Part shown: positions 2 through 59,987 of the stretch, in pieces | Layout of the letters: each line of letters begins with the position of its first letter | How positions within the stretch are numbered: the first letter of the stretch is position 1 | Virus record (IMG/VR): IMGVR_UViG_3300041779_000001 | Coordinates: 1 to 59,987 of that record | Source: a virus | Lineage: Duplodnaviria; Caudoviricetes | Length of the DNA: 59,987 nucleotides | Reading direction: 5' to 3' (one strand) | The notes under the pieces: generated by a model | Database searches by the model: none | What the model was told of the DNA's origin: nothing | The model's input: only the letters and a program-made list of their open reading frames with translations | Translations under genes and position numbers: made by a program

Positions 2-127
2 GACATGGCAATGCTAGAATACCTGCACAAGGAGAATAAGAATGCCTAGCACATGGATTCCGCCCAAAGGCAAGGTCTACACCATCGCGGTCGACTTCGA
101 CGGGGTCATCCATGACTACCATCGGGG
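2..127. repeat. 126-bp terminal direct repeat (circular assembly overlap) with 59862-59987
   Basis: Bases 2-127 are identical to 59862-59987; base 1 (a) differs from 59861 (t). Confidence 0.97.
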
Positions 128-527
128 ATGGCATGATGGCACCATCTATGGGTCATTGATCCCCGAAACCAAGGCTTCTTTGCAGTATCTGCTGAGTAAG
201 TACTCAGTCTTCGTCTTCACCGCCCGGGACCCCGAACAGGTCATGCCCTGGCTAGAACAGCACGGTTTCGATGTAACCATCGACGAGCGCTGCGGTGCCT
301 GCCTGGGTTCGGGAGGTTTTAGGGGCCCCGATGGGATGGATGGGGTCATTGGACCTTGGACTAACTGTCAAGGTTGCAAGGGCACCGGACAACTCATGTT
401 CTGGAATCTCAGGGATCAGATCCTGGTGACTAATCGGAAGCTGGCGGCTGGTGCTTACATCGACGATCGGGGCATTCGCTTCGAGACCTGGGAACAAACG
501 CTAGCTGACCTGGAGGCTGTACTGTGA
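42..527 (+). CDS. HAD-superfamily phosphatase/nucleotidase with inserted CxxCxGxG zinc-finger pair
   Basis: Motif I DFDGVIH, motif II FTAR, motif IV YIDDR; internal CGACLGSG and CQGCKGTG. Confidence 0.8.
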   Translation: MPSTWIPPKGKVYTIAVDFDGVIHDYHRGWHDGTIYGSLIPETKASLQYLLSKYSVFVFTARDPEQVMPWLEQHGFDVTIDERCGACLGSGGFRGPDGMDGVIGPWTNCQGCKGTGQLMFWNLRDQILVTNRKLAAGAYIDDRGIRFETWEQTLADLEAVL

Positions 528-1009
528 ATGATCGACCAAGCCGCGACTTCGTGCTGATGAACAATGCCGTCCTTTGGGGCATGCGTAGTACCTGCACTCG
601 GGCAGGAGTAGGGGTAGTAATCTCTAAGGATGGTCGCATTCTCGCCAGTGGGTACAATGGTGCACCCTCGGGCATGGACCACTGCGACCATAGCTGTAAC
701 TGCGACTGGTTGGTAGATGGTAACAAGGGCTTGCATGAGAGCGATTGCCGATATAAGCAGCCCTGCAAGAACGTGGTACATGCCGAGGCAAATGCCATCG
801 CTTTCGCCGCTCGGTTCGGGGTGGGAGTAGAAGGAGCCGAGCTGTTCACCACTAGGGTACCCTGTCTAACCTGTGCTGGAATGATCATCAATGCCGGCAT
901 CAAACGGGTAGTATGGAGCGAGGAACATCGGGACATGGAGGGCTTCCTGCGCCTTGGACAGGCTGGTCTGGAGGTGGTACAATATGACCATGACCAATCT
1001 GAAGCCTGA
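524..1009 (+). CDS. dCMP deaminase
   Basis: STCTRAGVG, SGYNGAPSG, HAEANAI and PCLTC zinc-deaminase motifs. Confidence 0.93.
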   Translation: MNDRPSRDFVLMNNAVLWGMRSTCTRAGVGVVISKDGRILASGYNGAPSGMDHCDHSCNCDWLVDGNKGLHESDCRYKQPCKNVVHAEANAIAFAARFGVGVEGAELFTTRVPCLTCAGMIINAGIKRVVWSEEHRDMEGFLRLGQAGLEVVQYDHDQSEA

Positions 1010-3560
1010 CCGTGGCTGTACTTCGTGCAAGCTCCATCGCAATGCTGAGACTGTCTGTGAGATGGGCACAGGCCCTCGGGATGCCGAGATCATGGTCATC
1101 GGCAAGATGCCCAACTCAGGTCGGTATCAGCAGTCTCTGGAATCTCAGCTAGAGGAAGTTGGCCTCGACCCGAACCGGGTCTACTTCACCGCTGCTCTGA
1201 AGTGCAAGAACTTCGAGGACAATGCCAGTAATGCCGATGTCAAGGCTTGCCGGCAGCATCTCGAGCGTGAGATCGAGGTCGTAAGGCCAAGTCACATCTT
1301 GGCTCTAGGTAATGAGGGACTGCTCGCATCCACTGGGCACTCAGGGATTACCAAGTACCGGGGCAAGCCCATTGATAAGGGCGAGTATACCGTAATCCCT
1401 ACCGTCTCCCCAGCTGCTGTCCTGCGTAACCCCGGCCAGCGCCCCGGCTATATGGCTGACCTGCGGCTCTTCGCCAATGACTACTTGGGCTTGACTACGG
1501 GGGTTAAGGTACCCCAGTTCGCCAGGATTGATACCAAGGCGAAACTCAAGGCTCTCAAAAAGATCCTGTACATGTCCCACACCATCAGTTTTGACATCGA
1601 GACTACAGTCAACCCTCTGGGTGAGTTCGACCCCAAAGCTAAGATGATCTCGTTGGCGGGGACATGTTTTGCTACGGTTACTAATGAGGATGGTAGTGAG
1701 ACCGAAAAGATTTTCGGTTTCGCTTTGCCCCTGTACCATCCTGAGTCGGTCTGGCAGCGATCTTGGAAATGGGTACTAAAGTTCCTTAAGGGTGCTCTCG
1801 AGAGTATCGATAAGGGCATCGCTCAGAATGGTAAGTTTGACTGTCGTTGGCTTAAGCACTTTGGTGTTAACATGAAGCATACCTTCGACACCATGCTGGC
1901 CATTCATGTTCTAAACGAGAACATTGCCAAGGGCCTCAAGCCCAATGCTATGGCTCGTCTAGGTGTAGCACCCTGGGGCAGAGATACTAAGAACCTGTTG
2001 GGTGACCCCCTCAACGAAGTCCTTGAATATAACTTCCTGGACACCTACTATACCTACCTGATCTATAAGCAGCTCAGGGATGAGTTGGTAGAGCAACCTC
2101 GATTGCTGCGACTCTTTATGAAGTTGATGATGCCGGCAAGTCGAGACCTAGTGGACATCGAAAGGCGGGGGATCTGGCTTGATGTTCAACGGCTTACCAA
2201 TAGGAAGCCGATCGCAGAGGCTAAACTGGCTGAGATCGAGGCTAGTCTTAGCGAGTATCTACCCGATCCCGAGTCAGATGACTGGCCCATGGATTCCAAG
2301 GGTAAGAAGAAACTGGAGATCAACTACAATGCCAGTATCTTTGCTCGGTGGTTTCTCTTCGAGTGGCTACAACTTCCTGTCCTCGAACGGGGTAAGGAAA
2401 AGCCCGACGGCTCGCCGGGTGACCCTAGCATGGCTGAGTCGATACTCCTCCACCTTAAAGATCGTCACCCCGCAGTACAGTTGATGCTTGATCGTGTGGG
2501 ATGGCAGAAGAACCTCAGTTCATTCTTCAATGCATACGAAGTCATGTACGATGACAACCATCGGGTCCACACAACCTTCAAGCTTGCCGGTACCGTAACT
2601 GGTCGACTCAGTTCTGGGAAGGCTGATGCTGAAAAGGTCGGGGGTCGCACTGACCTGCGCGGGGTCAACCTTCAGCAGGTACCTCGGGACCCATTCATTC
2701 GGGGCATGTTCGGAGCACCGCCGGGATGGACTTTTGTCGAAGCTGACTATTCTCAGATCGAACTGAGGATTGCCGCGTTCATCGCCCATGAGCGTCACAT
2801 GATTCAACTTTACCAAGAGGGTGCCGACATTCACATGATCACCACTATGGGAGTCACTGGACTACCCAAGGCGGGGGTCACAAAGGAGATCCGTAAGAAA
2901 GTGGGAAAGCCGGTTAACTTTGGTTTTCTCTATGGTATGGGTTGGAAAAAGTTCATCGAGACCGCGTTCAACAACTATGGCGCGGTATTCAATGAGAGCG
3001 AAGCTAGAGCTTATCGAGAAGCTTACTTCAAGCTTTATCCCGACTTGCAGCGATGGCACGAGAGGCAGCGAAGGCTCGTCAGAGAAAACGGTAGGGTGCA
3101 GAGCCCCCTTGGGCGAGTGCGCCACCTGCCTGACATCTACTCGCCTGAGAAGGGGGTCCAGGCCGAAGCAGAGAGGCAGGCAATCAACTCGCCGGTGCAG
3201 GGCTTCGCCTCTGACATGGCATTGCTATCCATGACCCTGATCAATGCCGAGTTCAGGCGGCAGGGTATTGCCGGCAATTGCCTGGGACTGGTACACGACG
3301 CAATTAACTTCGAAATCCGAGACGATGATCTCGGGCGGGCCCTCCCTATCATCAAGGATACCATGGAGGATCCAGAACCTCTTAGGCAGAAATTCGGTAC
3401 TATTCTCACCATTCCGATTGTAGCTGACCTCAAACTGGGTCGTCACTGGGGTGACTCGAAGGAAGTTGAGAACCCAGAGGTGATCTACAGCGCGACTGAT
3501 CTGGCCTTCTGGATGGCTCAGAACCACCCCGCTTATCAGCACGGATCATTGGTTGCTTAG
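984..3560 (+). CDS. polA: Family A DNA polymerase with N-terminal uracil-DNA-glycosylase-like domain and 3'-5' exonuclease
   Basis: Exo I FDIET; TGRLSS, NLQQVPR, motif A ADYSQIELR, motif B KPVNFGFLYG, motif C VHD; N-terminal CxxCxLH...GPRDAEIMVIG...PAAVLR family-4 UDG pattern; ATG 984 follows GGAGG. Confidence 0.95.
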   Translation: MTMTNLKPDRGCTSCKLHRNAETVCEMGTGPRDAEIMVIGKMPNSGRYQQSLESQLEEVGLDPNRVYFTAALKCKNFEDNASNADVKACRQHLEREIEVVRPSHILALGNEGLLASTGHSGITKYRGKPIDKGEYTVIPTVSPAAVLRNPGQRPGYMADLRLFANDYLGLTTGVKVPQFARIDTKAKLKALKKILYMSHTISFDIETTVNPLGEFDPKAKMISLAGTCFATVTNEDGSETEKIFGFALPLYHPESVWQRSWKWVLKFLKGALESIDKGIAQNGKFDCRWLKHFGVNMKHTFDTMLAIHVLNENIAKGLKPNAMARLGVAPWGRDTKNLLGDPLNEVLEYNFLDTYYTYLIYKQLRDELVEQPRLLRLFMKLMMPASRDLVDIERRGIWLDVQRLTNRKPIAEAKLAEIEASLSEYLPDPESDDWPMDSKGKKKLEINYNASIFARWFLFEWLQLPVLERGKEKPDGSPGDPSMAESILLHLKDRHPAVQLMLDRVGWQKNLSSFFNAYEVMYDDNHRVHTTFKLAGTVTGRLSSGKADAEKVGGRTDLRGVNLQQVPRDPFIRGMFGAPPGWTFVEADYSQIELRIAAFIAHERHMIQLYQEGADIHMITTMGVTGLPKAGVTKEIRKKVGKPVNFGFLYGMGWKKFIETAFNNYGAVFNESEARAYREAYFKLYPDLQRWHERQRRLVRENGRVQSPLGRVRHLPDIYSPEKGVQAEAERQAINSPVQGFASDMALLSMTLINAEFRRQGIAGNCLGLVHDAINFEIRDDDLGRALPIIKDTMEDPEPLRQKFGTILTIPIVADLKLGRHWGDSKEVENPEVIYSATDLAFWMAQNHPAYQHGSLVA

Positions 3561-6848: not shown

Positions 6849-6938
6849 TCTTCTCGGGATGAGCAACGAGCTAAAAAATCTATCCTCCGTCCGAAGTCTA
6901 GCCTTGACGTTTCATCGACCGAGATGAGATGATTGGCT

Positions 6939-7070
6939 TGGTTCGATCGCAGATTCCACCCGAGAGGCCCCCACACCTTTGGGATTTGCAATCGGACCAC
7001 CAAGTTCGGGCAGTCCGGTTTCCTAAAAAACCCTCCTCGGTCAAAGTAGGGGGAGACCGGACTGCCCTTT
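6939..7070 (+). ncRNA. Candidate two-hairpin small RNA
   Basis: TTGACG(6904)-N18-GATGAT upstream; stem 6939-6958/6980-6999 (20 positions, 3 G.U, 1 mismatch); 16-bp stem 7008-7023/7052-7067 followed by TTT. Confidence 0.65.
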
Positions 7071-7088
7071 GTCGTAAGAGGAGAAGCG

Positions 7089-7256
7089 ATGACATGGATC
7101 AAGTCCTCTCACTGCGGAGCTAATAACTCTTGCATCGAGGTCAACATCGAAACTGAGACAGTCCAGGTTCGAGACTCAAAGGATGATCAGAGCCCAGTAC
7201 TCACGTTCTCTCGAGAAGCCTGGGTAGACTTCCTCGTGATGGCCCCGAACAACTGA
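7089..7256 (+). CDS. DUF397 (BldB-like) protein, 55 aa, absent from the ORF track
   Basis: MTWIKSSHCGANNSCIEV...VQVRDSKD..SPVLTFSREAWVDFL matches the W.KSS..C.EV..VRDSK..W..F signature; GAGGAG RBS. Confidence 0.9.
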   Translation: MTWIKSSHCGANNSCIEVNIETETVQVRDSKDDQSPVLTFSREAWVDFLVMAPNN

Positions 7257-7257
7257 C

Positions 7258-7557
7258 ATGACAACACAACGCGAGTCTCGTATCAGTGGAAACATCTTGG
7301 ATGCCCTTCGTGCTCGAGGGGTATTCTGCTTCAAGATCCAGGGTGGTCCGACGATGATGAGGGGACTGCCGGACATCATCGCTTGTGTGGATGGCCACTT
7401 CGTGGGACTGGAAACAAAGGTTCCAGAAAAACGAGGTAATGTAAGCGTCATCCAGAGACGAGTTCATGAGTTGATGCGTCAGGCTGGAGCTACAGTGGTA
7501 GTAGTCTGCGGAGTGCAGGAAGCACTGGCAGTGATCGATCGAGTAAAGGGTGCATGA
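7258..7557 (+). CDS. VRR-NUC domain nuclease (Holliday junction resolvase-like)
   Basis: GLPDII...FVGLETK...Q pattern. Confidence 0.88.
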   Translation: MTTQRESRISGNILDALRARGVFCFKIQGGPTMMRGLPDIIACVDGHFVGLETKVPEKRGNVSVIQRRVHELMRQAGATVVVVCGVQEALAVIDRVKGA

Positions 7558-8138
7558 TGATTGCCTGGTACGATACGGAATTTCACGAGAGGGGCCATCA
7601 CTTCCCGATCGACCTTATCAGCATCGGGTTGGTGCGCCAAGATGGCTTCCAGTACTATGCCATCTGTTCAGAGTTTGACTTCGAGGCTGCCTGGAATAAC
7701 CCAGGCAAAGATGGCGACTACTGGTTGAGGGAGAATGTCCTCAAGCAACTACCCCTGATCTGGCCCGAGAATCGATCCACACCTAAGCTGGATAAGGCCC
7801 ATGCTAGTGTTCGTAGTCGGGCAGCAATCCGACGCGAGCTGATGGTCTTCCTCGGGCTAGATGGCCTGAACCCCGCTGAGATCGAGCTCTGGGCATGGTA
7901 TGCCGACTACGATCACGTCGTACTCTGTCAGCTCTTCGGGACTATGGCTGAACTGCCTGCTGGCATGCCTATGTTCACCCACGACCTCAAGCAGGAACTC
8001 GCCCTACATGGCAACCCGCCCATGCCGGCACAGGTGAGGGGGCATCACAACGCCCTCGATGATGCTTTGCACCTCAAGTATATGTGGTCGCATGCCAAGG
8101 CTCGAGGACTCGTCAACAAGACCACACCTATCAACTAG
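7554..8138 (+). CDS. DEDDh 3'-5' exoribonuclease, Rv2179c/RNase AS-like
   Basis: YDTEF, IDLISIG, WAWYADYDHV.LCQLFG.M..LP, HHNALDDA. Confidence 0.88.
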   Translation: MMIAWYDTEFHERGHHFPIDLISIGLVRQDGFQYYAICSEFDFEAAWNNPGKDGDYWLRENVLKQLPLIWPENRSTPKLDKAHASVRSRAAIRRELMVFLGLDGLNPAEIELWAWYADYDHVVLCQLFGTMAELPAGMPMFTHDLKQELALHGNPPMPAQVRGHHNALDDALHLKYMWSHAKARGLVNKTTPIN

Positions 8139-8145
8139 GAGTACC

Positions 8146-8481
8146 ATGAGAATCGAACAGGCATGGCTTCGGCTGCGCGCCGGCGATCGTATCCGCAATG
8201 CCCACTGGGCTGAGGAGATGTGGATCGTCCTGCAAGAGGGTTACCCCGAAGGTATCCCCATCAATGCCAACACGGCAAGGGCAACTCACATCCCTGAGGG
8301 TACGGTTAAGGCCTTCCGGCCCTACATCATGCTGCACTGCGTAGATGGCAGCTTCGTGCCTTATGTCGCAACCCAGTCTGACCTGCTGACCGAACACTGG
8401 CAAGTCATTCACGGCGATGGTACTCAGGACCAGTACGCCGTCGTCATCGGGCGCCCGCTTAAGGATAATCCGCAGGCGTAA
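8146..8481 (+). CDS. DUF2829 / Tad2-like protein
   Basis: A...LRAGDRIR...W, PYIML, VPYVATQSDLLTEHW; ATG 8146 after AGGAG. Confidence 0.75.
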   Translation: MRIEQAWLRLRAGDRIRNAHWAEEMWIVLQEGYPEGIPINANTARATHIPEGTVKAFRPYIMLHCVDGSFVPYVATQSDLLTEHWQVIHGDGTQDQYAVVIGRPLKDNPQA

Positions 8482-8488
8482 CGCCAAC

Positions 8489-8523
8489 CGGCCCTGCCCT
8501 CGATGGTGATGAGGGCAGGGCCG
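8489..8523. terminator. Hairpin between convergent genes
   Basis: CGGCCCTGCCCTC...GAGGGCAGGGCCG. Confidence 0.65.
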
Positions 8524-8530
8524 AGAGGTG

Positions 8531-8737
8531 TCAGAATCCCCAGAGAATTAGGCCGTGTCGGTCAGTACTAATGACCCCGACATCAAAGAATCCGCAGTTT
8601 CGCTTCAGCCAGAAGATCCACTGGGCACTGGATGAGGGATCGGTATCGACTCGAGCTTGACCATCGCGGCGGAGATCAGCAGCGAGGTCGCCCAGCCGAT
8701 CGATATCCAGCCCTTGGGGTTCAAGGGGAAAGGTCAT
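8531..8737 (-). CDS. Hypothetical protein, 68 aa, coupled to a 13-aa leaderless upstream ORF (8775-8734)
   Basis: ATGA overlap at 8734-8737; upstream promoter TTGACT-N17-TAGCAT. Confidence 0.5.
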   Translation of the reverse strand: MTFPLEPQGLDIDRLGDLAADLRRDGQARVDTDPSSSAQWIFWLKRNCGFFDVGVISTDRHGLILWGF

Positions 8738-9008
8738 GGCCGGATCACCTTTAGGCGGTGCGGGTATTTGGTCATGCCTCAATGCTATGGGCAGGGGGCA
8801 TACGAGTCAAGGCGCATAGGGCTATCCTCAAGCGATGGGCTCGCCATCATCGCCCAATCATGCCTACTCGCTAGCCCATGCGATTAGGAATATCCGTAGG
8901 GCTCTCTAATGGGTGATTGCGCATGACTGATCGATGCGCGATGCGAGCTATTAACCACGCCAATGAAGGCCGGCCCTGGCGCGGGCCGACCCTCGGGTGT
9001 GTGGGAGA

Positions 9009-9494
9009 TCAGCAGTCCTTTTCCCACTGCTGGGAGATTATGTTGCGGACAGTTTCCCGGGCGGAAGCACCGTCGATGTAGTTCTTCTCGAGGTCGGCGT
9101 AGTGAGGTAGTGACTCACCATTGGTGTGATACCCGTAAAGTATCTCCACTTGATCCACCCAACCCTCGAAGAAATGGGTGTACTTGTCGGAGGTCTCAAG
9201 GACCGCATCTCCTATGCGATCCATGTCAACCTCTCCTTCACCCAGGGGGCGGAACTGCTCGACCAAGAACTTGAACCGCGCCTCCTTTATCTTCTCGCTG
9301 CGGTGAACGAAGATGCCCTTGTCTCGAGCCTTGTTGTTGGCCCAAGTGCCGGAGTAACCGCAGCCCGACTCCTTGCAAGAAGCGAAGTGCCCCATGATTT
9401 TCCGGCCCTTATGGGTGATGGGGGAATAGTATCTGCGCATCTCGTGGAACGTAGGGTCAGTCCCAGGCAGGGGGTTCGGCTTGGTCTTGGTCAT
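9009..9494 (-). CDS. Hypothetical protein
   Basis: TGACCGAGGAGG leader (9499-9510) and TTGACG-N17-TACTAT promoter. Confidence 0.8.
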   Translation of the reverse strand: MTKTKPNPLPGTDPTFHEMRRYYSPITHKGRKIMGHFASCKESGCGYSGTWANNKARDKGIFVHRSEKIKEARFKFLVEQFRPLGEGEVDMDRIGDAVLETSDKYTHFFEGWVDQVEILYGYHTNGESLPHYADLEKNYIDGASARETVRNIISQQWEKDC

Positions 9495-9617
9495 GAATCC
9501 TCCTCGGTCAGGGGGGCAGCTGATGTAACCATAGTATCCTTCTTATAATGCCCCGTCAAGGCTTTGCCGGCAAGCATTACTTACACACCACGAGGGCCGC
9601 CGAAGCGGCCCCCGAAG

Positions 9618-12978: not shown

Positions 12979-13230
12979 ATGGCCTTCACACCCCCCGAAA
13001 ACCTCCCTGAAACGGAGGAAGACCTAGACAGTGCCCTGGCAAAGGTATATCTGGAGGGTAAGCGGGACGGCAAACGAGACTTGAGGTCGGAAATCAAGGA
13101 GTATCTTACCACTAAGTTCTACGGAGCCAAAGGCCGGGATCGTAGAGCTAACCCGGATGACCCGAAGATCCAGGCCATTCGGGAACTCATGCAAACACTG
13201 TACAGTAAGTTCGAGGATGGGTCTCTATGA
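12979..13230 (+). CDS. Hypothetical protein
   Basis: AAGGA RBS; ATGA overlap with primase-helicase. Confidence 0.65.
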   Translation: MAFTPPENLPETEEDLDSALAKVYLEGKRDGKRDLRSEIKEYLTTKFYGAKGRDRRANPDDPKIQAIRELMQTLYSKFEDGSL

Positions 13231-15272
13231 CAACTCCCAAGCCGGCAGTCGACCTCGGCAAAGCCCTTCGCATTATCTCGCGTGCATGGGGTAAGCAGTC
13301 TGGTTATGCCTTCTTCCCTTATATCGACCGAGCAGAACAGGAAGAGGCTGGACAGCGCCGAGCAGGCTTCCACGAGGGGCGGGCCTACGAGTGGCCCAAG
13401 GAAAAGGCCCAGATTCTTGAACACATGGCTGAGAACATCGGCCGTGATCTGTACTGGTGTCCCAACCTCTTCGAGGGCCCGGACCGCAAGTCAGAGCTCG
13501 CCATGGATGAACATGCCATGTGGGCAGATCTGGATGAAGCTGACCCTCGGATACTCAGTAATGAGTCCGACTTCAAACCTACAGTAGCTTGGGAATCCTC
13601 TCCCGGTCGGTATCAGGCATTGTGGCTGGGTAACCCCGATGTGGGTGATTTCCAGGGAGCTAGCTGGCCGGGTAACGAGAATCAGCGACTGAGCTATTAC
13701 CTCGGCGCTGACAAATCGGGCTGGGATACAACCCAGCTACTCCGGATTCCGGGTTGGCCCAACTGGAAACCTGAGTATCGCCGGAACGGCAAACCCCGCA
13801 TGGGTAAGCTGCTCTGGGATCGAGGGCCCATGTACAGCATGGAGGACTTCAAAGATCTCCCAGAGGTCAGAGGAGCCCTCACCCAGGACAAACTCGGCGA
13901 CATTCTTGAATCCGAAATCGATAACCTCGATCGATCCAAGATCATCGCTCGGATAAAGCTTAAGCTCAACCAGGTAGCTCGCGATCTGCTCACCTCCCGC
14001 ACAGCTGAGGGTCCACAGGGCTCGAGAGGGGATAATCTCTGGTACCTGATTAGATGCCTAGCAGATGCGGGCTGCACGGTTCAAGAGATCGTGGCAGTCG
14101 TTCGACCTTCGGTGTGGAATAAGTTCGAAGGCCGGCATGATGAGCTCAAGCGCCTGATCACTGAGGCGACGAAGGCCATCGATCAGCGCGATCCGGAAGT
14201 CGCGGAAGCTGTTGAGGAAGAGCAGGCACCCAAGTCGAGGCCCCAACGCCTCGCGGCCTTTCTCAAGAACGTGAAGCCGCCAACCTGGCTCGTGGATGGT
14301 ATCGCCACCGAGGGCAGCGTAGGCTTTATCGCCGGTTCACCGAAAAGTTTTAAGTCCTGGTTTGCCCTCGATCTCGCCCTATCCATCGCTACAGGTAGTC
14401 TCTTCCTCGATTACTTTCGGGTAGTCAAACCGGGTCGGGTACTATACATCCAGGAAGAAGATCCCGCTAGTACGGTCAAGGCTCGCACCAAGAAAATCTG
14501 GCGCAGTAAATCTTCAGATAAGATGACCATGGAACAGGGTGATGTACTCTGGTTGCCCGGTAATGACGACGACTTCGACCCCAACATCGACATTTACCTC
14601 ATGGAGGGCTTCGTAGTTTCTGAGGGTCATTGGCAAGAATGGCTCGATCAGGTAATGACTGAGGCCGCCGCTGAAGATGATCCCTACGTCATGGTTATTG
14701 TAGACACCCTCATGAACGTTGCCGGCGACGTTGAGGAAAACAAGTCACAAAGCATGACCACGAAGATCTTCAAGCCCATCAAGGTACTGATGAGGAAGCA
14801 CAATTCAGCTTTCCGTTTCGTTCACCACATGGGTAAGGGTGGCGATGATGGTACTAAACGAGGCGGTCAACGAATGCTGGGGGGCACAGCCAACCATGCC
14901 TGGGCTGAAGATAGTCTCTACATCTCAAGGGATAGTAAGCCTGGTCGAGTCAAGGTAGAGTTCGAATCCAAGTCAGCTCCCGAACAGCTTTACACCATCA
15001 GCGGTCTCGATAACCGCCTCTGGACTCCCTTCTTCGAGCCGGTACCCAAAAAGGATTCTCCCACACCCACAACGCCTGGCCGCGCACCGAGAGCCAAATC
15101 AAGCCAGCCTCACCCTGTCATGGAACTGCTCGGTCAAGGTGGTTCCTGGACTACACACGATGTCGCTGAGGCTACCGGAAAGCCCTACAATTCAACCTAC
15201 AAATCACTTCAGCGCTTCGAAGCGCGGGGTCTAATTACCAAGTCAGGCAAGGCCTGGCGACTAGGTACCTGA
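13227..15272 (+). CDS. Primase-helicase (RepB-like primase, AAA_25/RecA-like helicase, C-terminal wHTH)
   Basis: WADLD, WESSPGRYQALW, LLRIPG; Walker A GSPKSFKS; VLYIQEED; VIVDTL; FVHH. Confidence 0.88.
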   Translation: MTTPKPAVDLGKALRIISRAWGKQSGYAFFPYIDRAEQEEAGQRRAGFHEGRAYEWPKEKAQILEHMAENIGRDLYWCPNLFEGPDRKSELAMDEHAMWADLDEADPRILSNESDFKPTVAWESSPGRYQALWLGNPDVGDFQGASWPGNENQRLSYYLGADKSGWDTTQLLRIPGWPNWKPEYRRNGKPRMGKLLWDRGPMYSMEDFKDLPEVRGALTQDKLGDILESEIDNLDRSKIIARIKLKLNQVARDLLTSRTAEGPQGSRGDNLWYLIRCLADAGCTVQEIVAVVRPSVWNKFEGRHDELKRLITEATKAIDQRDPEVAEAVEEEQAPKSRPQRLAAFLKNVKPPTWLVDGIATEGSVGFIAGSPKSFKSWFALDLALSIATGSLFLDYFRVVKPGRVLYIQEEDPASTVKARTKKIWRSKSSDKMTMEQGDVLWLPGNDDDFDPNIDIYLMEGFVVSEGHWQEWLDQVMTEAAAEDDPYVMVIVDTLMNVAGDVEENKSQSMTTKIFKPIKVLMRKHNSAFRFVHHMGKGGDDGTKRGGQRMLGGTANHAWAEDSLYISRDSKPGRVKVEFESKSAPEQLYTISGLDNRLWTPFFEPVPKKDSPTPTTPGRAPRAKSSQPHPVMELLGQGGSWTTHDVAEATGKPYNSTYKSLQRFEARGLITKSGKAWRLGT

Positions 15273-52931: not shown

Positions 52932-53567
52932 TTACTCGTCGTCCTCGTCCATGTCGAGCTCTTCGTCGTCCTCGACCTCTTCGACGGGAGCCGGCTTGGC
53001 CTTCCGCTTGGCCGTGGTCTTCTTGGCGGCGACCTTCCGCTTCGGCGCGGGGGTCTCGTCCTCGTCGTCCTCCTCGACCGAGGCGGTGGCCTTCTTGGCC
53101 GCGGTCTTGGCGGCCTTGTTCTCCTTCAGAGCCTTGAGCTTCGCCTGCTTCTCAGCCTCGAGCTCTCCGCCCTGGTAGGCCTTGACGATGGCGACGACCT
53201 CGGGGTCGTTCGGGCCAGACCAGTCGTAGCGGCTGCGGTTGCCGGCGACGATCTCGCGCTGGACTCGACCGGAGTCATCGCGAGCCATCTTGCGGATCAG
53301 GGTACGAAGGCCGCGAGCGTCAACATCCTCGCCCGTCTTCTTCTTGATCAGGGCTCGAAGGTCGTTGATGCCGAAGGTGACCTCCTGGGCGGTGGACTTC
53401 TTGGTGGCCGGCTTGGTCTCGGTCACCTCGTCCTCCTCGAGCTCGTCCATGTCCTCGAGATCGCCGTCATCCTCGGTCGACTCAGTGTCAAGCTCCTCGT
53501 CGGGCTCGACCTCGGGGGCGGGCTTCGCAGCCTTGGTGGAGGTCCGTCGGCCCTTGGTGACAGCCAT
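52932..53567 (-). CDS. DNA-binding protein with acidic and Lys/Ala-rich low-complexity arms
   Basis: Core RGLRTLIRK...RSRYDW; GAGGAG RBS; TTGACG promoter; strong codon bias. Confidence 0.75.
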   Translation of the reverse strand: MAVTKGRRTSTKAAKPAPEVEPDEELDTESTEDDGDLEDMDELEEDEVTETKPATKKSTAQEVTFGINDLRALIKKKTGEDVDARGLRTLIRKMARDDSGRVQREIVAGNRSRYDWSGPNDPEVVAIVKAYQGGELEAEKQAKLKALKENKAAKTAAKKATASVEEDDEDETPAPKRKVAAKKTTAKRKAKPAPVEEVEDDEELDMDEDDE

Positions 53568-53744
53568 TGTAATTCTCCTCAAGTGGGGGATGTTATCATA
53601 AGCCCTAGGTGCTGGGCGGTGATGGGTAAAATATATCCTTCTAGTGGGGCGGCGTCAAGGCGGCCAGGCGGTTACGGGAACATTGACTCCTCATGCGCGC
53701 AGCATTAGCATTGCCTCATCAACCTCCTATTGACCGAGGCTAAA

Positions 53745-54182: not shown

Positions 54183-54470
54183 ATGGACTGGCAAAAGGTC
54201 TCTTTGACAGTTATCGCTAGATATGGCATGAGTGATACGCCTGAGGCATATGTCATACATGAGGTAAATCCCGATCGAACAACTGCCTGGATCCGTCATG
54301 GTTTTCCAGGGGCTACGACGTATTATGTAAATTTCTATTGTCGCAAGAGACCGAGGAAAGTCAGGTTGTTCACTCGGATACCAAAGGGTTTCAAGGTCTG
54401 TAAGACATGTACCATGAGGAAGGTCCATGGCCCCCTAACCCGCAGCGAGGAGCAAAGTGACCAAGTATAG
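54183..54470 (+). CDS. Hypothetical protein
   Basis: CKTC; precedes the helicase. Confidence 0.5.
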   Translation: MDWQKVSLTVIARYGMSDTPEAYVIHEVNPDRTTAWIRHGFPGATTYYVNFYCRKRPRKVRLFTRIPKGFKVCKTCTMRKVHGPLTRSEEQSDQV

Positions 54471-55944
54471 GTGGAAAACTAAGCCCTACAAGCACCAGGT
54501 GCTGGGGGTTAAGAAGTTGCTCTCTACTGGGTTCGGCGGGGCTTTGCTGATGGCTCCTCGGACGGGCAAGACTAAAACCATGATCGACTATGGCTCATGT
54601 CTCTATGCCCTCGGAAAGGCCCAGCGTATCCTGATCTTCTGCCCACTTTCAGTCATCGGGGTGTGGGAACAAGAGATTGCTGCTCACTGCCCCTTCGACT
54701 ACCGTATCACCGTTTGGGATAAGGAGGCTAGAAAGAAGGGCGTACAGCTCCCTCGATCTGGGGGTAAGTCCTTGGACTGGGTGATCATCAACTATGATGC
54801 TCTTTCCACACCAGGCGCAATCGTCAAGGAGGATGCCTATGGCAATAAGATTCGATCGCGCCGGCGCGGGGGTCGATACGATATCTTGAAAGCTTTTACC
54901 CGGTGGCAGCCTCACGTCATTGCCCTGGATGAATCCCATCGTATCAAGTCTCCAACTGCGGTCAAATCTCGGATGATGCATAAACTGGGGCAAACTGCAG
55001 AGTATCGGGTTATCATGACGGGTACTGTGGTAACCAAGAAGAAGCGTATCTTCGATATCTGGTCACAGTGGAAGTTTCTGTATCCCGATCGATTCGGACA
55101 TATGACCTTTGGGGAGTTCAAGTCAGAGTATGGCGTCTGGGTACAGATGCAGGGCTATTCTAAGTGGATCAAGAACAAAAACGAAGATGGCCTACATGCG
55201 ATGATTCACCAGGACGCCTATGCCATCAGTCGAGAGGAATGCTTCGACCTGCCCCCACGAAGGCATCAGATCATCCCGATCGAACTGGAAGAATCTGGGG
55301 ACTCTTACGATCAGATGGCTAAGGAGATGGTTGCCAAGATTCACACTGGAGAAATTACTCAGGCATCCATCGCCCTCGTACAGAGTCTTCGACTGAGGCA
55401 AATTACCTCAGGTATTGCTAAGACCGAACCAACGGCTGACCACCCCAACGGTCGACTGGTTCGTGTGGGGCATGAAAAACTCAATGTCATGAAGGATCTA
55501 CTGTCGGATCTCTTTGAAGCTGATGAGAAGGTGGTGGTTGGGGCTCACTTCATTGGCGATATCAACGCTATTGCGGAGATGTGCAGGGAACTCAAGGTTA
55601 CCGTATTCGTACTGAGGGGTGGGGTGCCTCGCCGGCAACGCGATGCAGATATCCTAGCCTTCCGTCGGCATTCCGGACCTGCTTGCTTCGTGGCTCAGCC
55701 CCAGGCTGCATCCCTGGGCATTGACCTATCAACTGCCTCGATCTGCATTTGGTTTTCACTGACCCCCAGCTACGTGGACTTTACTCAGTTTGAAGATCGT
55801 ATCGCCCTGTCGAATCGCAGTACCATGTTCATGTACCTGCTAGCTGAAGGTACAGTCGATGAACTCCTATACGAAACACTACAGGAAGATGGCGAGGTAG
55901 CCAAGGCAATTATGGCCTCACCGGAACGACTATTGCGAGAATGA
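54457..55944 (+). CDS. SNF2-like superfamily 2 helicase
   Basis: PYKHQ, RTGKT, LDESHRIK, MTGT, GIDLSTA, QFEDR. Confidence 0.9.
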   Translation: MTKYRWKTKPYKHQVLGVKKLLSTGFGGALLMAPRTGKTKTMIDYGSCLYALGKAQRILIFCPLSVIGVWEQEIAAHCPFDYRITVWDKEARKKGVQLPRSGGKSLDWVIINYDALSTPGAIVKEDAYGNKIRSRRRGGRYDILKAFTRWQPHVIALDESHRIKSPTAVKSRMMHKLGQTAEYRVIMTGTVVTKKKRIFDIWSQWKFLYPDRFGHMTFGEFKSEYGVWVQMQGYSKWIKNKNEDGLHAMIHQDAYAISREECFDLPPRRHQIIPIELEESGDSYDQMAKEMVAKIHTGEITQASIALVQSLRLRQITSGIAKTEPTADHPNGRLVRVGHEKLNVMKDLLSDLFEADEKVVVGAHFIGDINAIAEMCRELKVTVFVLRGGVPRRQRDADILAFRRHSGPACFVAQPQAASLGIDLSTASICIWFSLTPSYVDFTQFEDRIALSNRSTMFMYLLAEGTVDELLYETLQEDGEVAKAIMASPERLLRE

Positions 55945-56027
55945 CCAATTGCCATGGCATTTGACTGATGCCTGACGGAAAGGATAGCATTTACTTATAC
56001 CGCCCCGACCGAGGAGGAACTGCTGCT

Positions 56028-56651
56028 GTGCTAATTGTCGAGGGTCCGGATGGAGGGGGAAAATCCACCCTTGTCCGGTTCTTGAGTTCTCGGTTGAAAC
56101 TTCCAGTGGCCAACAAGGTGGTCGGCTCTAATACTGAGCCGCTCACCGACCTGGTAGCTTGGACTGAGAATAACGTAGCTCGAGGATTCCAGGGCATGAT
56201 CTTCGATCGTCACCGCCTGATCTCTGAGCCCATCTACTCGCCGCTCAAAACGAGTAATCCCTCTGGGAAATTCCTGGACCTGGGCTGGATGGCTGAAGTA
56301 ACCTGGGGTTTCTATGCCTGTCACCCCATCATCATCTACGCCTTGCCCGGGTTTGAGGCAGTCCAGGCTAACGTGGAAAACCCCGAGACTGACAATGAGT
56401 TCGTAAGGGATTGGATCCCACACATCTATGCTGGGTATGTCGCTCGAGCCTCGGCAGATCTGACTCGCAAGAACGTTCGGTTGTACAACTACAACACCAC
56501 TCGGCCTGACGACATCGTCGGCTGGGTCAAGCGAATCCTCGACGAAAGGTCCCCTCAGGATGTCGAACGCCCGCGTATCCCGCGCCAGTCTGCCGATTCC
56601 CCGTCAGTCGCCCGAATCGGTCGCCAAGCATCGGGCTGGGTTTCCGACTGA
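56028..56651 (+). CDS. dNMP (thymidylate-like) kinase
   Basis: IVEGPDGGGKST, IFDRH.LISE.IY; GACCGAGGAGG leader; TTGACT-N18-TAGCAT. Confidence 0.85.
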   Translation: MLIVEGPDGGGKSTLVRFLSSRLKLPVANKVVGSNTEPLTDLVAWTENNVARGFQGMIFDRHRLISEPIYSPLKTSNPSGKFLDLGWMAEVTWGFYACHPIIIYALPGFEAVQANVENPETDNEFVRDWIPHIYAGYVARASADLTRKNVRLYNYNTTRPDDIVGWVKRILDERSPQDVERPRIPRQSADSPSVARIGRQASGWVSD

Positions 56652-57045
56652 GTTGCCCCAGGTAAACTACCTCGAGATGATCTTCGAGGGCCAGAAGCAC
56701 CTCATGGTAAAGTACCACGCCATCGAGGCCGCGAACGGCTCGCCGGTCATCACTCGGGAGGAAGAGGGCAACCTCGACGACCGCAAGGTCCAGGCCCGCA
56801 TCCACGAGTTGTTCGGCTACCTCATCCGAGAACTCGCCGAGGCGATGCAGGAGCTCAAGCTCAAGCCGTGGAAGAAATCCGGCGAGCTCACGGTCACCGA
56901 GAACTTCGTGGAGGAAATGGCAGACTCCTTCCACTTCTTCGTTGAGATGTGCATCACCGCCGGCATGAGTGCTGAGGACCTGCACCGGGCCTACTTCAGG
57001 GCTCACCGCAAGAATGTCGATCGGATCGAGGGGGGTACTTACTGA
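56560..57045 (+). CDS. Dimeric all-alpha dUTPase/dCTPase (MazG-like fold)
   Basis: ELAEA...KPWKK...EEMADSFHFF...KN..R; start uncertain. Confidence 0.82.
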   Translation: MSNARVSRASLPIPRQSPESVAKHRAGFPTELPQVNYLEMIFEGQKHLMVKYHAIEAANGSPVITREEEGNLDDRKVQARIHELFGYLIRELAEAMQELKLKPWKKSGELTVTENFVEEMADSFHFFVEMCITAGMSAEDLHRAYFRAHRKNVDRIEGGTY

Positions 57046-57314
57046 TGGCGGCAAAGGATAGCAAGTATCAGGGGGTGCGAGATGATCAACACCCCAGTGA
57101 GGGTACTTGGGTACAGGTAGTCCATGACTGCGTGACGCCAAGTCAGAGTGAAATCGCGGCCAAAGCTGCCGCGGTAAACACTATTTGGAGCTGCGGTAAT
57201 TGCTCCGACAAGTGGAAGCTGATCCTTCACGGTCAGCAAGGGAGTTTCGGGGGAGTAACTAAAACCGAGCTCACGTGGGTTCGTATTACGCCTAAGGGCG
57301 AGGACGGGGAATAA
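57045..57314 (+). CDS. Hypothetical protein
   Basis: HDC...WSCGNC; TGATG overlap. Confidence 0.6.
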   Translation: MAAKDSKYQGVRDDQHPSEGTWVQVVHDCVTPSQSEIAAKAAAVNTIWSCGNCSDKWKLILHGQQGSFGGVTKTELTWVRITPKGEDGE

Positions 57315-57317
57315 GAG

Positions 57318-57473
57318 TTGACTCGGGCAGTATCCCTCTTGAAGCGAGAAGCTATACGTGAGAGGGCCCGAACCACTAAGGCCGTCGCCGCGGCTATTGC
57401 GATGAGTTTTCTCGCGGTAGTCGCGGCGGCTGCCGCCGTCGCTATGACTCGAGCTTTGATTTGGATGTGGTGA
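57318..57473 (+). CDS. Small membrane protein, 51 aa, absent from the ORF track
   Basis: TTG start, Ala-rich TM helix, TGATG overlap with the next gene. Confidence 0.5.
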   Translation: MTRAVSLLKREAIRERARTTKAVAAAIAMSFLAVVAAAAAVAMTRALIWMW

Positions 57474-58513
57474 TGAGAACCTACAAAGCTGATACCATGA
57501 CAGAGCTCCATGACAAGATGATTCTGTCTCTGGTGCAGGCCTCAGATAAGGACCTCGATGTAATCTCCAATGTCGACGTCCAGATTCACAATGTCATGGG
57601 CTATGCCGAAACTATGGACTGGGACTTCGATCTGAAGACTCTGTGGCTCACCAAGTCACGCTGGTCCATGATGGTCAAGCAGTACCTCGACCCCGATGAA
57701 CTGACGGCCTGGATCGATCAGTGCACGGCAAGGATCGGTCGCAAGGGCCGAGGGATCGCCGTCCTACGCACTCGGATCGTAAAGCCGAGGGGTGGGGCCG
57801 CAACTGGGCATACGAATCGAGAGACTCGACGCTGGGGCTCCTGTATGCTGAATCTCAGCTACAAAGCCTTGCCCCGACCGCAAATCACCTTGCACTCGCG
57901 TACCTCCTATCTTGGTTACATCGGAGCTCTCGATCTCTCAGTTGCCTGGATGGCCGCCAAGTATTTGGCTGATGAGATGGGGATGGAGGTCAAAGACTTC
58001 TCCTTCCTTTGGTACAACGAGGCCATCCAGTGGCACAACTTCAAGAGCATGGCTTGGATGCTCTGCAATCCCGATCCCGAACTCAGGTCGATGTATCGGC
58101 GGTTCTTGACCAAGCCGATGTCCAAGCTCTCTGAGGTCGAGCTCGCGGTCATCGCTGAATCGCCGGCAATTCGCATGACCAGGGCATGGCTCCTCAAGGT
58201 GCGCAAGGAAGATGCGGCAGGGGCCACCTATGGTGACATGACCTACAATACTTACCGACGTATCAGACGACGCTGGCATACCGAGGTACTCGGCCTCGAG
58301 AAAGCCAAGACCTTCGAGGGCTGGTCCAAGTACAGGGTCGGTCCGAAGGTCGGTGAGAACAAGGAGTTCTTCAAGGCATATCACGAGCTGCCGTCGGTGT
58401 GGATCAGCGAATGCGATTTCTCGGCAATCAAGATGCCGGCAGGTCAGCGATACGGAGGAGACTATGTGCAGGGGATTGACGGGGAGGAAGATGAGTTCGA
58501 TGACAACGAGTGA
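57473..58513 (+). CDS. Divergent thymidylate-synthase-fold protein
   Basis: GSC-x18-R(TSYLGYIGAL)D resembles the TS C146...R166...N177 spacing; V.QYLD. Confidence 0.6.
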   Translation: MRTYKADTMTELHDKMILSLVQASDKDLDVISNVDVQIHNVMGYAETMDWDFDLKTLWLTKSRWSMMVKQYLDPDELTAWIDQCTARIGRKGRGIAVLRTRIVKPRGGAATGHTNRETRRWGSCMLNLSYKALPRPQITLHSRTSYLGYIGALDLSVAWMAAKYLADEMGMEVKDFSFLWYNEAIQWHNFKSMAWMLCNPDPELRSMYRRFLTKPMSKLSEVELAVIAESPAIRMTRAWLLKVRKEDAAGATYGDMTYNTYRRIRRRWHTEVLGLEKAKTFEGWSKYRVGPKVGENKEFFKAYHELPSVWISECDFSAIKMPAGQRYGGDYVQGIDGEEDEFDDNE

Positions 58514-58970
58514 AAATGACTGCGGAGGTCTCTGGAACTGCACTTTGCCTGCCGGGCATAACAAGGGCAAAGCTGATATTCGGGAGAATCATCATAACTG
58601 CAGCACGTGCCAGTGCGGCTACTGTGATGGTGGACCTTGTTGCCGGGGGGTGTTCAGTGTAGATGAAGCTCAACCTTATCCCCCCAAGCCCAAAGGAGCT
58701 TTCCAGGGTGATGACAAAGTTCTGGGTATGACTGAGGGGACCTTCAAACCTGGGCCTAGTAGTCTAATCAACATTAGTGACCCCTTCTCTCCACTCCAAC
58801 TTCAGCTGGTGGTCACCCACAATAACGAGAAGGTCACCTATCACCCCGTCGGTACAGATAGGCCCTGGAGGATCGATGCTGGTCTTCGCGAGCTGGTAAT
58901 TGGCAAGGGTGTTGGTAGGGTGATGCTGCCCCTCTGCAATATCCTGTACTACTCGCTAGAGCAATACTGA
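58500..58970 (+). CDS. Cys-rich hypothetical protein
   Basis: CGG..NC...GH, CSTCQCGYC..CC. Confidence 0.55.
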   Translation: MTTSENDCGGLWNCTLPAGHNKGKADIRENHHNCSTCQCGYCDGGPCCRGVFSVDEAQPYPPKPKGAFQGDDKVLGMTEGTFKPGPSSLINISDPFSPLQLQLVVTHNNEKVTYHPVGTDRPWRIDAGLRELVIGKGVGRVMLPLCNILYYSLEQY

Positions 58971-59024
58971 ACTTGAGGCGGGGCGGCTTCCCTCGGGAGG
59001 TCGCCTCGCGGTGAGGAAAACCCC

Positions 59025-59909
59025 ATGAGGTTGTACGCATCCAGTACATTCGAGGATCTGCCCAAGATGATCATCCGAGACTTTGTTGAACGAGCCGAGG
59101 AGGTTGATGTCGGCGAATGGCAATCGCGCGATATCAAGGGCGATCGCTCAAAGGTCACTTGGGAGCTCAGGGAAGCATCTCTGCATTTCGGGCTCATCAA
59201 CTCGATCGTTGGGGCAGCACAGGCGATCCAACCAAACCTGCCCTGGGCTGAGGACCACTTCCGCGAACGAGTCGGGGGAGAACCACTTAACCCGCCGCCT
59301 TCCCAGGCCTGGTGGCCGTTTGCCCAGGAAGGCCATAAAGATCACCTCGTCGGGGGAAAATTCTCCCACACCTATCCTGAACGATTCTGGCCCAAGCATG
59401 CGGCCCATGATCGATCGAATTGTCCCCATGTTGCCGAGATGCAAGACGGCAAGGATTCTGGCTACTACAGTAATTCCTGGGGTTGTAGCTACGGTGACCA
59501 TCGCGGGGTCAGGTTCGAGTATGGCGACTACAATGACGTGATCGATCGTCTGGTCAAGAACCCCCTCACTCGTCAGGCCTACCTCCCCATCTATTTCCCC
59601 GAAGATAACGGGGTGCCGGAGGGTGAGCGCGTGCCTTGTACGCTGGGGTATCTGTTCATGGTACGCAACAACCAGCTCCACCTCACCTACTACATGAGGT
59701 CCTGTGACTTCATGCGGCATTGGCGAGATGACGTCTATATGGCCAATCGTCTGGCTATAGACGCTATGGATCAACTGAACTACCACCTGTCCCCGGATCA
59801 CCCTCAGATCACCCTCGGGGACATGGCAATGCACATCGGCTCTCTGCACGTCTTCGAGGGTGACATGGCAATGCTAGAATACCTGCACAAGGAGAATAAG
59901 AATGCCTAG
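59025..59909 (+). CDS. Thymidylate-synthase-family enzyme, dCMP hydroxymethylase-like
   Basis: TRQAYLPI, VPCTL, YMRSCDFMRHWRDD, IGSLHVF; Asp at the N177-equivalent position. Confidence 0.85.
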   Translation: MRLYASSTFEDLPKMIIRDFVERAEEVDVGEWQSRDIKGDRSKVTWELREASLHFGLINSIVGAAQAIQPNLPWAEDHFRERVGGEPLNPPPSQAWWPFAQEGHKDHLVGGKFSHTYPERFWPKHAAHDRSNCPHVAEMQDGKDSGYYSNSWGCSYGDHRGVRFEYGDYNDVIDRLVKNPLTRQAYLPIYFPEDNGVPEGERVPCTLGYLFMVRNNQLHLTYYMRSCDFMRHWRDDVYMANRLAIDAMDQLNYHLSPDHPQITLGDMAMHIGSLHVFEGDMAMLEYLHKENKNA

Positions 59910-59987
59910 CACATGGATTCCGCCCAAAGGCAAGGTCTACACCATCGCGGTCGACTTCGACGGGGTCATCCATGACTACCATCGGGG
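59862..59987. repeat. Second copy of the 126-bp terminal repeat
   Basis: Identical to 2-127. Confidence 0.97.

Follow-up and report, generated by a model that had tools for sequence, protein, structure and literature searches.

Bacteriophage T4 makes hydroxymethyl-deoxycytidine (hydroxymethyl-dC) by a pathway that includes gp42, a hydroxymethylase of deoxycytidine monophosphate (dCMP); gp1, a deoxynucleoside monophosphate (dNMP) kinase; gp56, which is a dCTPase and dUTPase; and Cd. To our knowledge, all known routes by which phages modify cytosine at the nucleotide level begin with a homolog of thymidylate synthase (TS) that has aspartate at position 177. (Positions are numbered as in ThyA from E. 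coli, which has asparagine there.) Here we describe a homolog of this type, which we will call the TS homolog, and the gene cassette around it in an uncultured phage, IMG/VR virus record IMGVR_UViG_3300041779_000001. The window that we analyzed is the entire record (59,987 bases). From sequence comparisons, we think it probable that the cassette acts before replication to form a C5-substituted deoxycytidylate, which would be incorporated by the phage's own DNA polymerase I (PolA).

Several TS-fold enzymes that act on cytosine nucleotides have been described. Among metavirome contigs with modified or unmodified cytosine, positions 177 and 147 are reported to best separate the TS homologs of the two groups (PMC8670742). 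N177D is described as the determinant for dCMP and an acidic residue at position 143 as typical of hydroxymethylases, while D169N is said to identify the flavin-dependent 5-hydroxy-dCMP synthases (PMC13326640). Both of these papers cite mutagenesis in which replacing Asn with Asp at position 177 shifts the enzyme's preference to dCMP. As for gene neighborhoods, of 149 dCMP deaminases on contigs with modified cytosine, 104 are reported to be within 3 kb of a TS gene, versus 17 of 277 dCMP deaminases on unmodified contigs, and PRA-PH pyrophosphatases and PolA are among the frequent top neighbors (bioRxiv 10.1101/2024.12.05.627091). For phages like Xp12 and PaMx74, the same preprint gives 5-methyl-dC as the product and reports that the deaminases can prefer 5-methyl-dCTP, which they convert to dTTP.

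A TS homolog with a cytosine-type signature

The TS homolog is a divergent member of its superfamily. Its match to PF00303 (27.1 bits) is barely above the cut-off of 24.3 bits, and it scores far below NCBIfam's equivalog cut-offs for ThyA (17.2 vs. 108 bits for TIGR03284 and 16.4 vs. 327 bits for NF002497). We aligned its family (39 homologs with 44-100% identity, chosen by hand from 120 that were listed among the 3169 found), and we used hmmalign to place ThyA from E. coli K-12 on the family's profile. The TS homolog shares with canonical ThyA the fold, the catalytic cysteine (C205, which corresponds to C146), the phosphate-binding arginine (R225, which corresponds to R166), and the aspartate at position 169 (D228), which is invariant in the family. 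The differences from canonical ThyA are N177D (at D236), H147T (at T206), Q165M (at M224), L143R (at R202), G173H (R231-H232 aligns with L172-G173), and R127Q (R183-Q184 aligns with R126-R127).

The original prediction for this locus, which was made from the sequence alone, had placed an aspartate at the position of ThyA's N177, and comparisons with solved structures agree. When we compared the family's profile to the proteins in the PDB, the best match was MilA (5b6d; E = 1.3e-8), which is the CMP 5-hydroxymethylase of mildiomycin synthesis. The other matches were an entry for TS from L. casei that has aspartate at this position, T4's dCMP hydroxymethylase (dCH; E = 1.9e-5), and AfhB (E = 3e-5). 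D236 was paired with the aspartate of MilA, of T4 dCH, and of AfhB. These three enzymes and the TS homolog also have threonine just after the catalytic cysteine and methionine just before the arginine, where TS from L. casei has histidine and glutamine. Aspartate at position 177 is invariant in the aligned family (39/39), and all 23 of the proteins that we read from the window, 18 IMG/VR loci, and phages Zuko, Triscuit, GTE2, and PaMx74 have it too. This conservation is far beyond chance. Judging from these alignments, the TS homolog carries a cytosine-type active-site signature.

Other positions bear on which group would be added to the cytosine. T4-like enzymes are reported to have aspartate or glutamate at position 143, while the TS homolog has an arginine (R202) that is invariant in its family, so it lacks the acidic marker of the hydroxymethylases. 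Because this arginine fits neither the methyl class nor the hydroxymethyl class, the product cannot be called from position 143. For dCMP methylases, the residue expected at position 143 is one that excludes water. PaMx74 is said to make 5-methylcytosine (5mC) and its enzyme has asparagine at this position by alignment, so the rule for position 143 does not decide for a methyl product here. Because aspartate is kept at position 169, the published marker places the TS homolog outside of the 5-hydroxy-dCMP synthases. Finally, G173, which aligns with H232, is listed among the residues within 6 Å of C5 (NAR paper). As judged by its predicted residues, the active site is unlike any characterized one.

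Residues ~125-160 of the TS homolog form an insertion that contains cysteines and histidines. It is kept in a subset of the 39 homologs, and the others have short or unrelated stretches there. Its role may be to bind metal or to regulate the enzyme.

The cassette and its closest parallels

The original prediction had one run of genes continuing across the junction between the two ends of the record. The end of the record is identical to its beginning (Table 1) and CheckV gives a completeness of 100%, so the genome is closed (59.9 kb) and the run of genes truly crosses the junction. This means that the TS homolog directly precedes the HAD-like gene, the deaminase, and PolA. In outline, the order is helicase, kinase, pyrophosphatase, a second protein with the TS fold (which we will call TSfold1), the TS homolog, a weak HAD-like protein, a deaminase, and a PolA with an N-terminal domain like family-4 UDG (UDG4-PolA).

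Table 1. Features of the cassette and the end repeat, in the order in which they occur across the junction (aa, amino acids; ORF, open reading frame)
Feature	Coordinates	Strand	Evidence or remark
SNF2-family helicase	54457..55944	+	PF00176 2.7e-18, PF00271 2.7e-7; conserved upstream neighbor of the cassette
P-loop (deoxy)nucleotide kinase, TMPK/dNK fold	55968..56651	+	phrog_761 "thymidylate kinase" 3.5e-8
All-alpha dimeric-dUTPase/MazG-like NTP pyrophosphatase	56560..57045	+	PF08761 dUTPase_2 1.9e-7
89-aa ORF, no assigned family	57045..57314	+	No match in Pfam, PHROG, or NCBIfam
TSfold1, 346 aa, phrog_13667 (no known function)	57473..58513	+	TS-superfamily fold by AF2/Foldseek
Cys-rich 156-aa ORF, uncertain start	58500..58970	+	No Pfam match
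Divergent TS homolog, cytosine-type signature	59025..59909	+	PF00303 2.9e-6; phrog_160 1.3e-27
End overlap, 126 bp	59862..59987		100% identity to 2-127
HAD-like protein, possible nucleotidase	42..527	+	phrog_1238 1.4e-13
dCMP-deaminase-family zinc deaminase	524..1009	+	PF00383 2.5e-20; phrog_174 1.6e-51
DNA polymerase I with N-terminal family-4 UDG-like domain	954..3560	+	NF004397 9e-82

This neighborhood is the published signature of the contigs with modified cytosine, so Xp12, PaMx74, and the MetaGPA contigs are a closer parallel than T4 is. Like the window, their cassette combines a TS homolog that has Asp177 with a deaminase of the dCMP family, a PRA-PH or MazG-like pyrophosphatase, and PolA, and the deaminase adjoins both the TS homolog and PolA. 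At the level of sequence, the two are less alike: ThyA from PaMx74 is just 33% identical to the TS homolog over 95 residues, and it has asparagine, proline, and leucine at the positions of R202, T206, and M224. Also, unlike the window, PaMx74 does not have a homolog of TSfold1 that is detectable by BLASTP or with a hidden Markov model (HMM).

The original prediction had likened the cassette to the T4 pathway. This stands insofar as the four enzyme roles of T4 (gp42, gp1, gp56, and Cd) have adjacent analogs here, by homology, and the TS homolog has the cytosine-type signature, with aspartate, threonine, and methionine at positions 177, 147, and 165 as in T4 dCH. However, T4 dCH is only remotely similar to the TS homolog, the kinase in the window has a TMPK/dNK fold, there is an extra TS-fold protein, and no glucosyltransferase was found among the ORFs that we scanned.

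MilA, the best profile match, has the same threonine, methionine, and Asp177, but it has aspartate at position 143 and glycine at position 173, where the TS homolog has arginine and histidine. Also, MilA acts on a ribonucleotide during the synthesis of an antibiotic, while the TS homolog lies in a phage replication module. The flavin-dependent 5-hydroxy-dCMP synthases (gp48 of RB69, gp80 of DLP3, and AfhB of HY126) share the TS fold and Asp177 and act on a cytosine mononucleotide, as we propose for the TS homolog. Their D169N is absent from the TS homolog, and TSfold1, whose best fold match in the PDB is AfhB, has a tyrosine there that matches neither pattern.

A second protein with the TS fold

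The original prediction counted two TS-fold genes. The TS homolog is recognized by PF00303, while TSfold1 is recognized by its predicted fold only. As a single sequence, TSfold1 had no match in Pfam, NCBIfam, or the PDB; its family profile did not find TS, or anything related, in the PDB; and none of 71 members of its family match PF00303 at E ≤ 0.1. The AlphaFold2 (AF2) model of TSfold1 has a pLDDT of 92, and its top matches in the PDB by Foldseek (E ≤ 1e-3) all belong to the TS superfamily (AfhB, 9iqu, at 5.8e-7; MilA; T4 dCH; and TS), with modest TM-scores of 0.3-0.54. Among viral structures (BFVD), the top three matches were uncharacterized phage proteins, followed by TS and dCH. A protein-language search that began with TSfold1 also led to PF00303 clusters. 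We conclude from the model that TSfold1 is in the TS superfamily by fold only, with a link that is invisible at the level of sequence.

One search found 1076 homologs of TSfold1, or 193 representatives at 50% clustering. We aligned 71 near-full-length representatives, which were picked from 150 that were listed of the 193. Y71, G122, C124, R143, D154, and W180 are invariant (71/71), and 99% of the members have R63 and S142. The spacings from C124 to R143 and from R143 to D154 are 19 and 11, versus 20 and 11 for C146-R166-N177 of ThyA, and the order of secondary structure in the AF2 model (strand, strand, helix) fits TS. This suggests that C124 is the nucleophile and that D154 is the residue that reads the cytosine. 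Three residues past the invariant arginine, where folate-dependent members carry Asp169, TSfold1 has a tyrosine (85% conserved). TSfold1 might instead act on a uracil nucleotide.

A predicted complex of the TS homolog and TSfold1, run without controls, had a score of 0.00 and a mark of 0.32. This counts neither way on whether they bind. We also considered gp55 of PaMx74, which is a hypothetical protein of 333 aa at a similar position, as a homolog of TSfold1; BLASTP and the HMM rejected it.

Other genes of the cassette

We compared the cassette to 22 related loci, namely 19 relatives from IMG/VR and phages Zuko, Triscuit, and GTE2, with tblastn to identify which genes are present. Most of the cassette is conserved: the kinase, the deaminase, and UDG4-PolA were each found in 21 of the 22 loci, the pyrophosphatase was found in 16, and a homolog of the helicase (43-85% identity) lies 5' of the cassette in 21.

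The original prediction's assignments for the kinase, the dUTPase-like gene, the deaminase, and the UDG-PolA held up at the level of fold or family. Although the kinase had no match in a Pfam scan, it has a match in PHROG (Table 1), and its AF2 model (from 35 homologs) has a pLDDT of 88.8. The top matches to that model in the PDB by Foldseek were YorR from B. subtilis (9.1e-6), deoxyadenosine kinase, and many thymidylate kinases. The kinase likely starts with the GTG at 56028, which is 20 codons into the ORF, and would then be 207 aa long; a database gene call (P0391) is identical to this 207-aa protein. The pyrophosphatase is above the cut-off for PF08761 (31.9 vs. 22.9 bits), matches phrog_12184 (2.6e-25), and contains the KPWK motif. 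It is also weakly similar to the dUTPase of C. jejuni (1w2y). It probably starts with the ATG at 56674, and from its homology we propose that it is a dCTPase/dUTPase. The best solved relative of the deaminase is T4 Cd (1vq2; 2.1e-22). In UDG4-PolA, residues 22-171 match TIGR00758 (UDG_fam4; 4e-16).

The gene at the start of the record had been described as an HAD phosphatase, and we found only a weak HAD-like signal. Its match to HAD-IIB in NCBIfam (0.0028) is below the cut-off, its best match among HAD proteins in the PDB has an E-value of 0.09, and it has no match in Pfam. Since it was found in none of the 22 related loci, it occupies a variable slot and lies outside of the conserved core of the cassette. 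The 89-aa ORF was not found in any of the 22 loci either, and GTE2 has a small ORF in the corresponding slot that is dissimilar to it. The Cys-rich ORF had a match in 5 of the 22. Triscuit gp65, which occupies the same slot, was considered as its homolog and rejected, as the two have no similarity.

Distribution in cultured phages

Using tblastn (1e-5), we found the family of the TS homolog in 130 of 50,697 phage records. These include phages of Gordonia (72), Clostridium (10), Mycobacterium (9), Serratia (6), Pseudomonas (5), Streptomyces (4), and others. TSfold1 was found in 85 of the 50,697 records, from phages of Gordonia (68), Mycobacterium (9), Streptomyces (4), Microbacterium (2), Curtobacterium (1), and Mycobacteroides (1). 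All 85 are actinophages, and they include Muddy. The original prediction had called this virus an actinophage, which it may be, given the hosts of these 85 phages. A megablast search with the cassette region against the phage collection gave zero matches.

TSfold1 is consistently found just 5' of the TS homolog. The TS homolog lies 3' of TSfold1 in 21 of the 22 related loci, and in the exception, the locus is cut by the end of the contig. The order helicase, kinase, pyrophosphatase, TSfold1, TS homolog, deaminase, PolA is common to Streptomyces phage Zuko, Microbacterium phage Triscuit, Gordonia phage GTE2, and Mycobacterium phage Muddy. Of the proteins of Muddy, gp46 has the aspartate and 41% identity to the TS homolog, and gp47 is a homolog of TSfold1. 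Its gp45 (7667-8209 of locus L029) has been annotated as hypothetical, but it shares 42% identity with the deaminase of the window.

Homologs of both TS-fold proteins (P0079 and P0159) also lie on one contig of 58,676 bp in the assembly of a Streptomyces sp. This contig is probably a related phage that was carried in the Streptomyces culture, and so it is a clue to host range.

The same order is seen in Serratia phage Tlacuache and Brevundimonas phage Strzyga, where a ~270-aa protein is encoded just 5' of the TS homolog. These upstream proteins match the HMM for TSfold1 marginally (E = 0.013-0.016 at Z = 1000), and they have a Gly-x-Cys motif and an Arg-Ser-Thr motif with an aspartate 11 residues later. 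Their potential homology to TSfold1 is a lead only.

Triscuit has a series of three TS-fold genes (6530-9607 of locus L006): TSfold1 (gp64), the Asp-type TS homolog (gp66), and a canonical ThyA (gp67). Triscuit gp67 matches PF00303 at 3.8e-123 and has L143, H147, Q165, and N177. Because Triscuit encodes a canonical ThyA beside the Asp-type homolog, the Asp-type enzyme is not simply a dTMP synthase.

These phages' genes have been read otherwise. The database annotations of Zuko, Triscuit, GTE2, and Muddy read as ordinary thymidylate synthesis, and the announcement of Gordonia phage Azira, which is the one paper we found that discusses these genes in an actinophage, takes four such genes as thymine synthesis (PMC10353413). 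If so, the deaminase and the dUTPase would form dUMP, the TS homolog would convert it to dTMP, the kinase would convert that to dTDP, and TSfold1 would be an unrelated accessory. The TS homolog does reach the cut-off for PF00303. However, it has aspartate, threonine, and methionine in place of ThyA's N177, H147, and Q165; it misses the equivalog cut-offs for ThyA widely; the cited mutagenesis of Asn177 to Asp shifts preference to dCMP; and in Triscuit, the true ThyA adjoins the Asp-type gene. We consider ordinary thymidylate synthesis to be quite improbable. In the literature that we searched (supplements excluded), modified cytosine was not reported for any actinophage with this cassette, and a search for AfhB gave nothing relevant.

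A proposed pathway and its alternatives

If the cassette makes a modified deoxycytidylate, then the homologies of its proteins suggest the following steps. The dUTPase-like pyrophosphatase would convert dCTP (and dUTP) to the monophosphate. In the TS homolog, Cys205 would attack C6 of dCMP and a one-carbon unit would be added at C5; Asp236 would read the N3/N4 face of the cytosine, and Asp228 is retained, as in folate-dependent members. The kinase with the TMPK/dNK fold would phosphorylate the modified dCMP. The deaminase would be a source of thymidylate, with dCMP or (as in phages like Xp12) the 5-methyl compound as its starting material. PolA would then receive the modified deoxycytidylate for replication. 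TSfold1 would most likely carry out a second reaction on the cytosine nucleotide.

As conservative guesses, the final base would be 5-methylcytosine or 5-hydroxymethylcytosine (5hmC). Nucleotide-level formation of a C5-modified cytosine, as in the original prediction, is the best reading of the active-site signature and the gene neighborhood; to state that the genome carries it overstates what genes can say about virion DNA. The original prediction had also suggested that the base may be new as no glycosyltransferase was recognized. We scanned the cassette genes and 20 further ORFs (a subset of the window's ORFs) with Pfam, and we too found no glycosyltransferase families. But plain 5mC and 5hmC do not need a glycosyltransferase, so its absence says nothing about the novelty of the base, and we dropped this argument.

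More speculatively, the two TS-fold enzymes might act serially: the Asp-type enzyme would attach a one-carbon group to dCMP, and then TSfold1 would use its own cysteine to attack C6 and would replace or enlarge the group. The result would be an undescribed adduct at C5 of cytosine that is completed before replication. TSfold1 lacks the aspartate that marks folate-dependent members at position 169. We regard this serial scheme as unlikely.

Several points weigh against a cassette for modified deoxycytidylate. The similarity of the TS homolog to characterized cytosine enzymes is remote (profile E-values of 1e-8 to 3e-5). Position 143 is an invariant arginine in this family, versus leucine in ThyA, aspartate in MilA, and asparagine in PaMx74 (by BLASTP or hmmalign), and the invariant Arg231-His232 that replaces L172-G173 is absent from the characterized members in our alignments. 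Given these odd residues at 143 and 172-173, the chemistry may differ from that of every characterized member. The substrates of the pyrophosphatase, the kinase, and the deaminase are all assumed. For TSfold1, a comparison of its family to that of the TS homolog with hhalign was not significant (probability 4.7%), and C124, R143, and D154 were mapped to C146, R166, and N177 by spacing and by the order of secondary structure, not by superposition. Lastly, in the literature searched, we found no record of DNA composition or enzyme activity for the virus or its relatives, and no odd DNA was reported for the cultured carriers, which have been routinely sequenced and handled; this is an absence of reports only.

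The composition of the window does not help. None of the 4- or 6-base palindromes is strongly avoided (the lowest ratios of observed to expected counts are 0.78-0.84, for GGCC, TGCA, and GTAC), and the over-represented palindromes are AGCT (1.29) and GCCGGC (1.52). These statistics are too weak to favor or disfavor modification of the DNA.

We did not find canonical ThyA or ThyX in the window, which fits with dTMP that is supplied by the host or else with a deaminase route from 5-methyl-dCMP or 5-methyl-dCTP. In the extreme, the cassette might be a by-pass for making thymidylate: the Asp-type TS would make 5-methyl-dCMP, the deaminase would convert it (or its triphosphate) to thymidylate, and the virion DNA would contain little or no modified cytosine. 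Besides the missing ThyA and ThyX, the adjacent deaminase in 21 of 22 loci favors a by-pass, and 5mC-selective deaminases that are encoded beside Asp177 TS homologs have been proposed to make dTTP from 5-methyl-dCTP (bioRxiv 10.1101/2024.12.05.627091). But the same preprint reports that Xp12 and PaMx74 combine this route with full replacement of cytosine by 5mC. Furthermore, replacement would better explain why the cassette has its own kinase and an enzyme like a dCTPase; Triscuit encodes a canonical ThyA as well; and Tlacuache and Strzyga retain the kinase, the pyrophosphatase, the upstream protein, and the TS homolog without an annotated deaminase. A by-pass with little modified cytosine thus seems distinctly unlikely to us.

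The cassette could instead replace thymine. The deaminase would form dUMP, a TS-fold enzyme would convert it to 5-hydroxymethyl-dUMP, and the phage would have a modified thymidine, as in SPO1 or M6. The combination of a deaminase, a dUTPase-like protein, a kinase, a TS homolog, and a possible nucleotidase does resemble the SPO1-type pathways of phages with 5-hydroxymethyl-deoxyuridine (5-hmdU). However, every homolog of the TS homolog that we aligned has aspartate, not asparagine, at position 177, and Pfam scans of the 20 further ORFs (about half of which had no match at all) did not identify any 5-hmdU DNA kinase, methyltransferase, dioxygenase, or other hypermodification family. We view thymine replacement as very improbable, and a module for C5-substituted deoxycytidylate remains the explanation that we favor.

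Other genes in the window

A few genes outside of the cassette had informative matches. A 140-aa ORF at 8059-8481 (+) contains a Tad2-like (Thoeris anti-defense 2) domain (PF11195, 3.1e-13) and is a candidate anti-defense gene. The protein encoded at 13227-15272 (+; 681 aa) has an N-terminal RepB-type primase as well as an AAA_25 domain, and its C terminus weakly matches a TrmB-like helix-turn-helix. The gene at 7554-8138 (+) encodes a domain like the 3'-5' exoribonuclease Rv2179c (PF16473, 1.9e-8). The ORFs at 6105-6848 (+), which has no family match, and at 52932-53582 (-) encode long low-complexity tails that are acidic (Glu/Asp-rich) and Lys/Ala-rich. The high-GC ORFs on the opposite strand around these two look spurious.

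Implications

This type of pathway is known. What is new is the pairing with an uncharacterized TS-fold enzyme, the unusual active site of the TS homolog (with arginine at position 143 and Arg-His at 172-173), and the presence of the cassette in many cultured actinophages. The cultured carriers (for example, Triscuit, Zuko, GTE2, and Curtobacterium phage Shrew) are easily grown and include phages of Gordonia, Mycobacterium, Streptomyces, Microbacterium, and Curtobacterium, whose genes have been filed under thymidylate synthesis. Both TS-fold enzymes are candidates for new nucleotide chemistry.

If the DNA of these phages is modified, then pre-replicative modification of cytosine would extend to actinophages. 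The modification would alter how the phages encounter restriction and other defenses that target DNA, and also the behavior of their DNA during cloning, engineering, and nanopore sequencing. And if the two TS-fold enzymes do act serially, then a new DNA base would be present in this virus and in over 80 cultured actinophages, Muddy (a therapeutic phage) among them, and TSfold1 would represent a new class of reaction within the TS fold.

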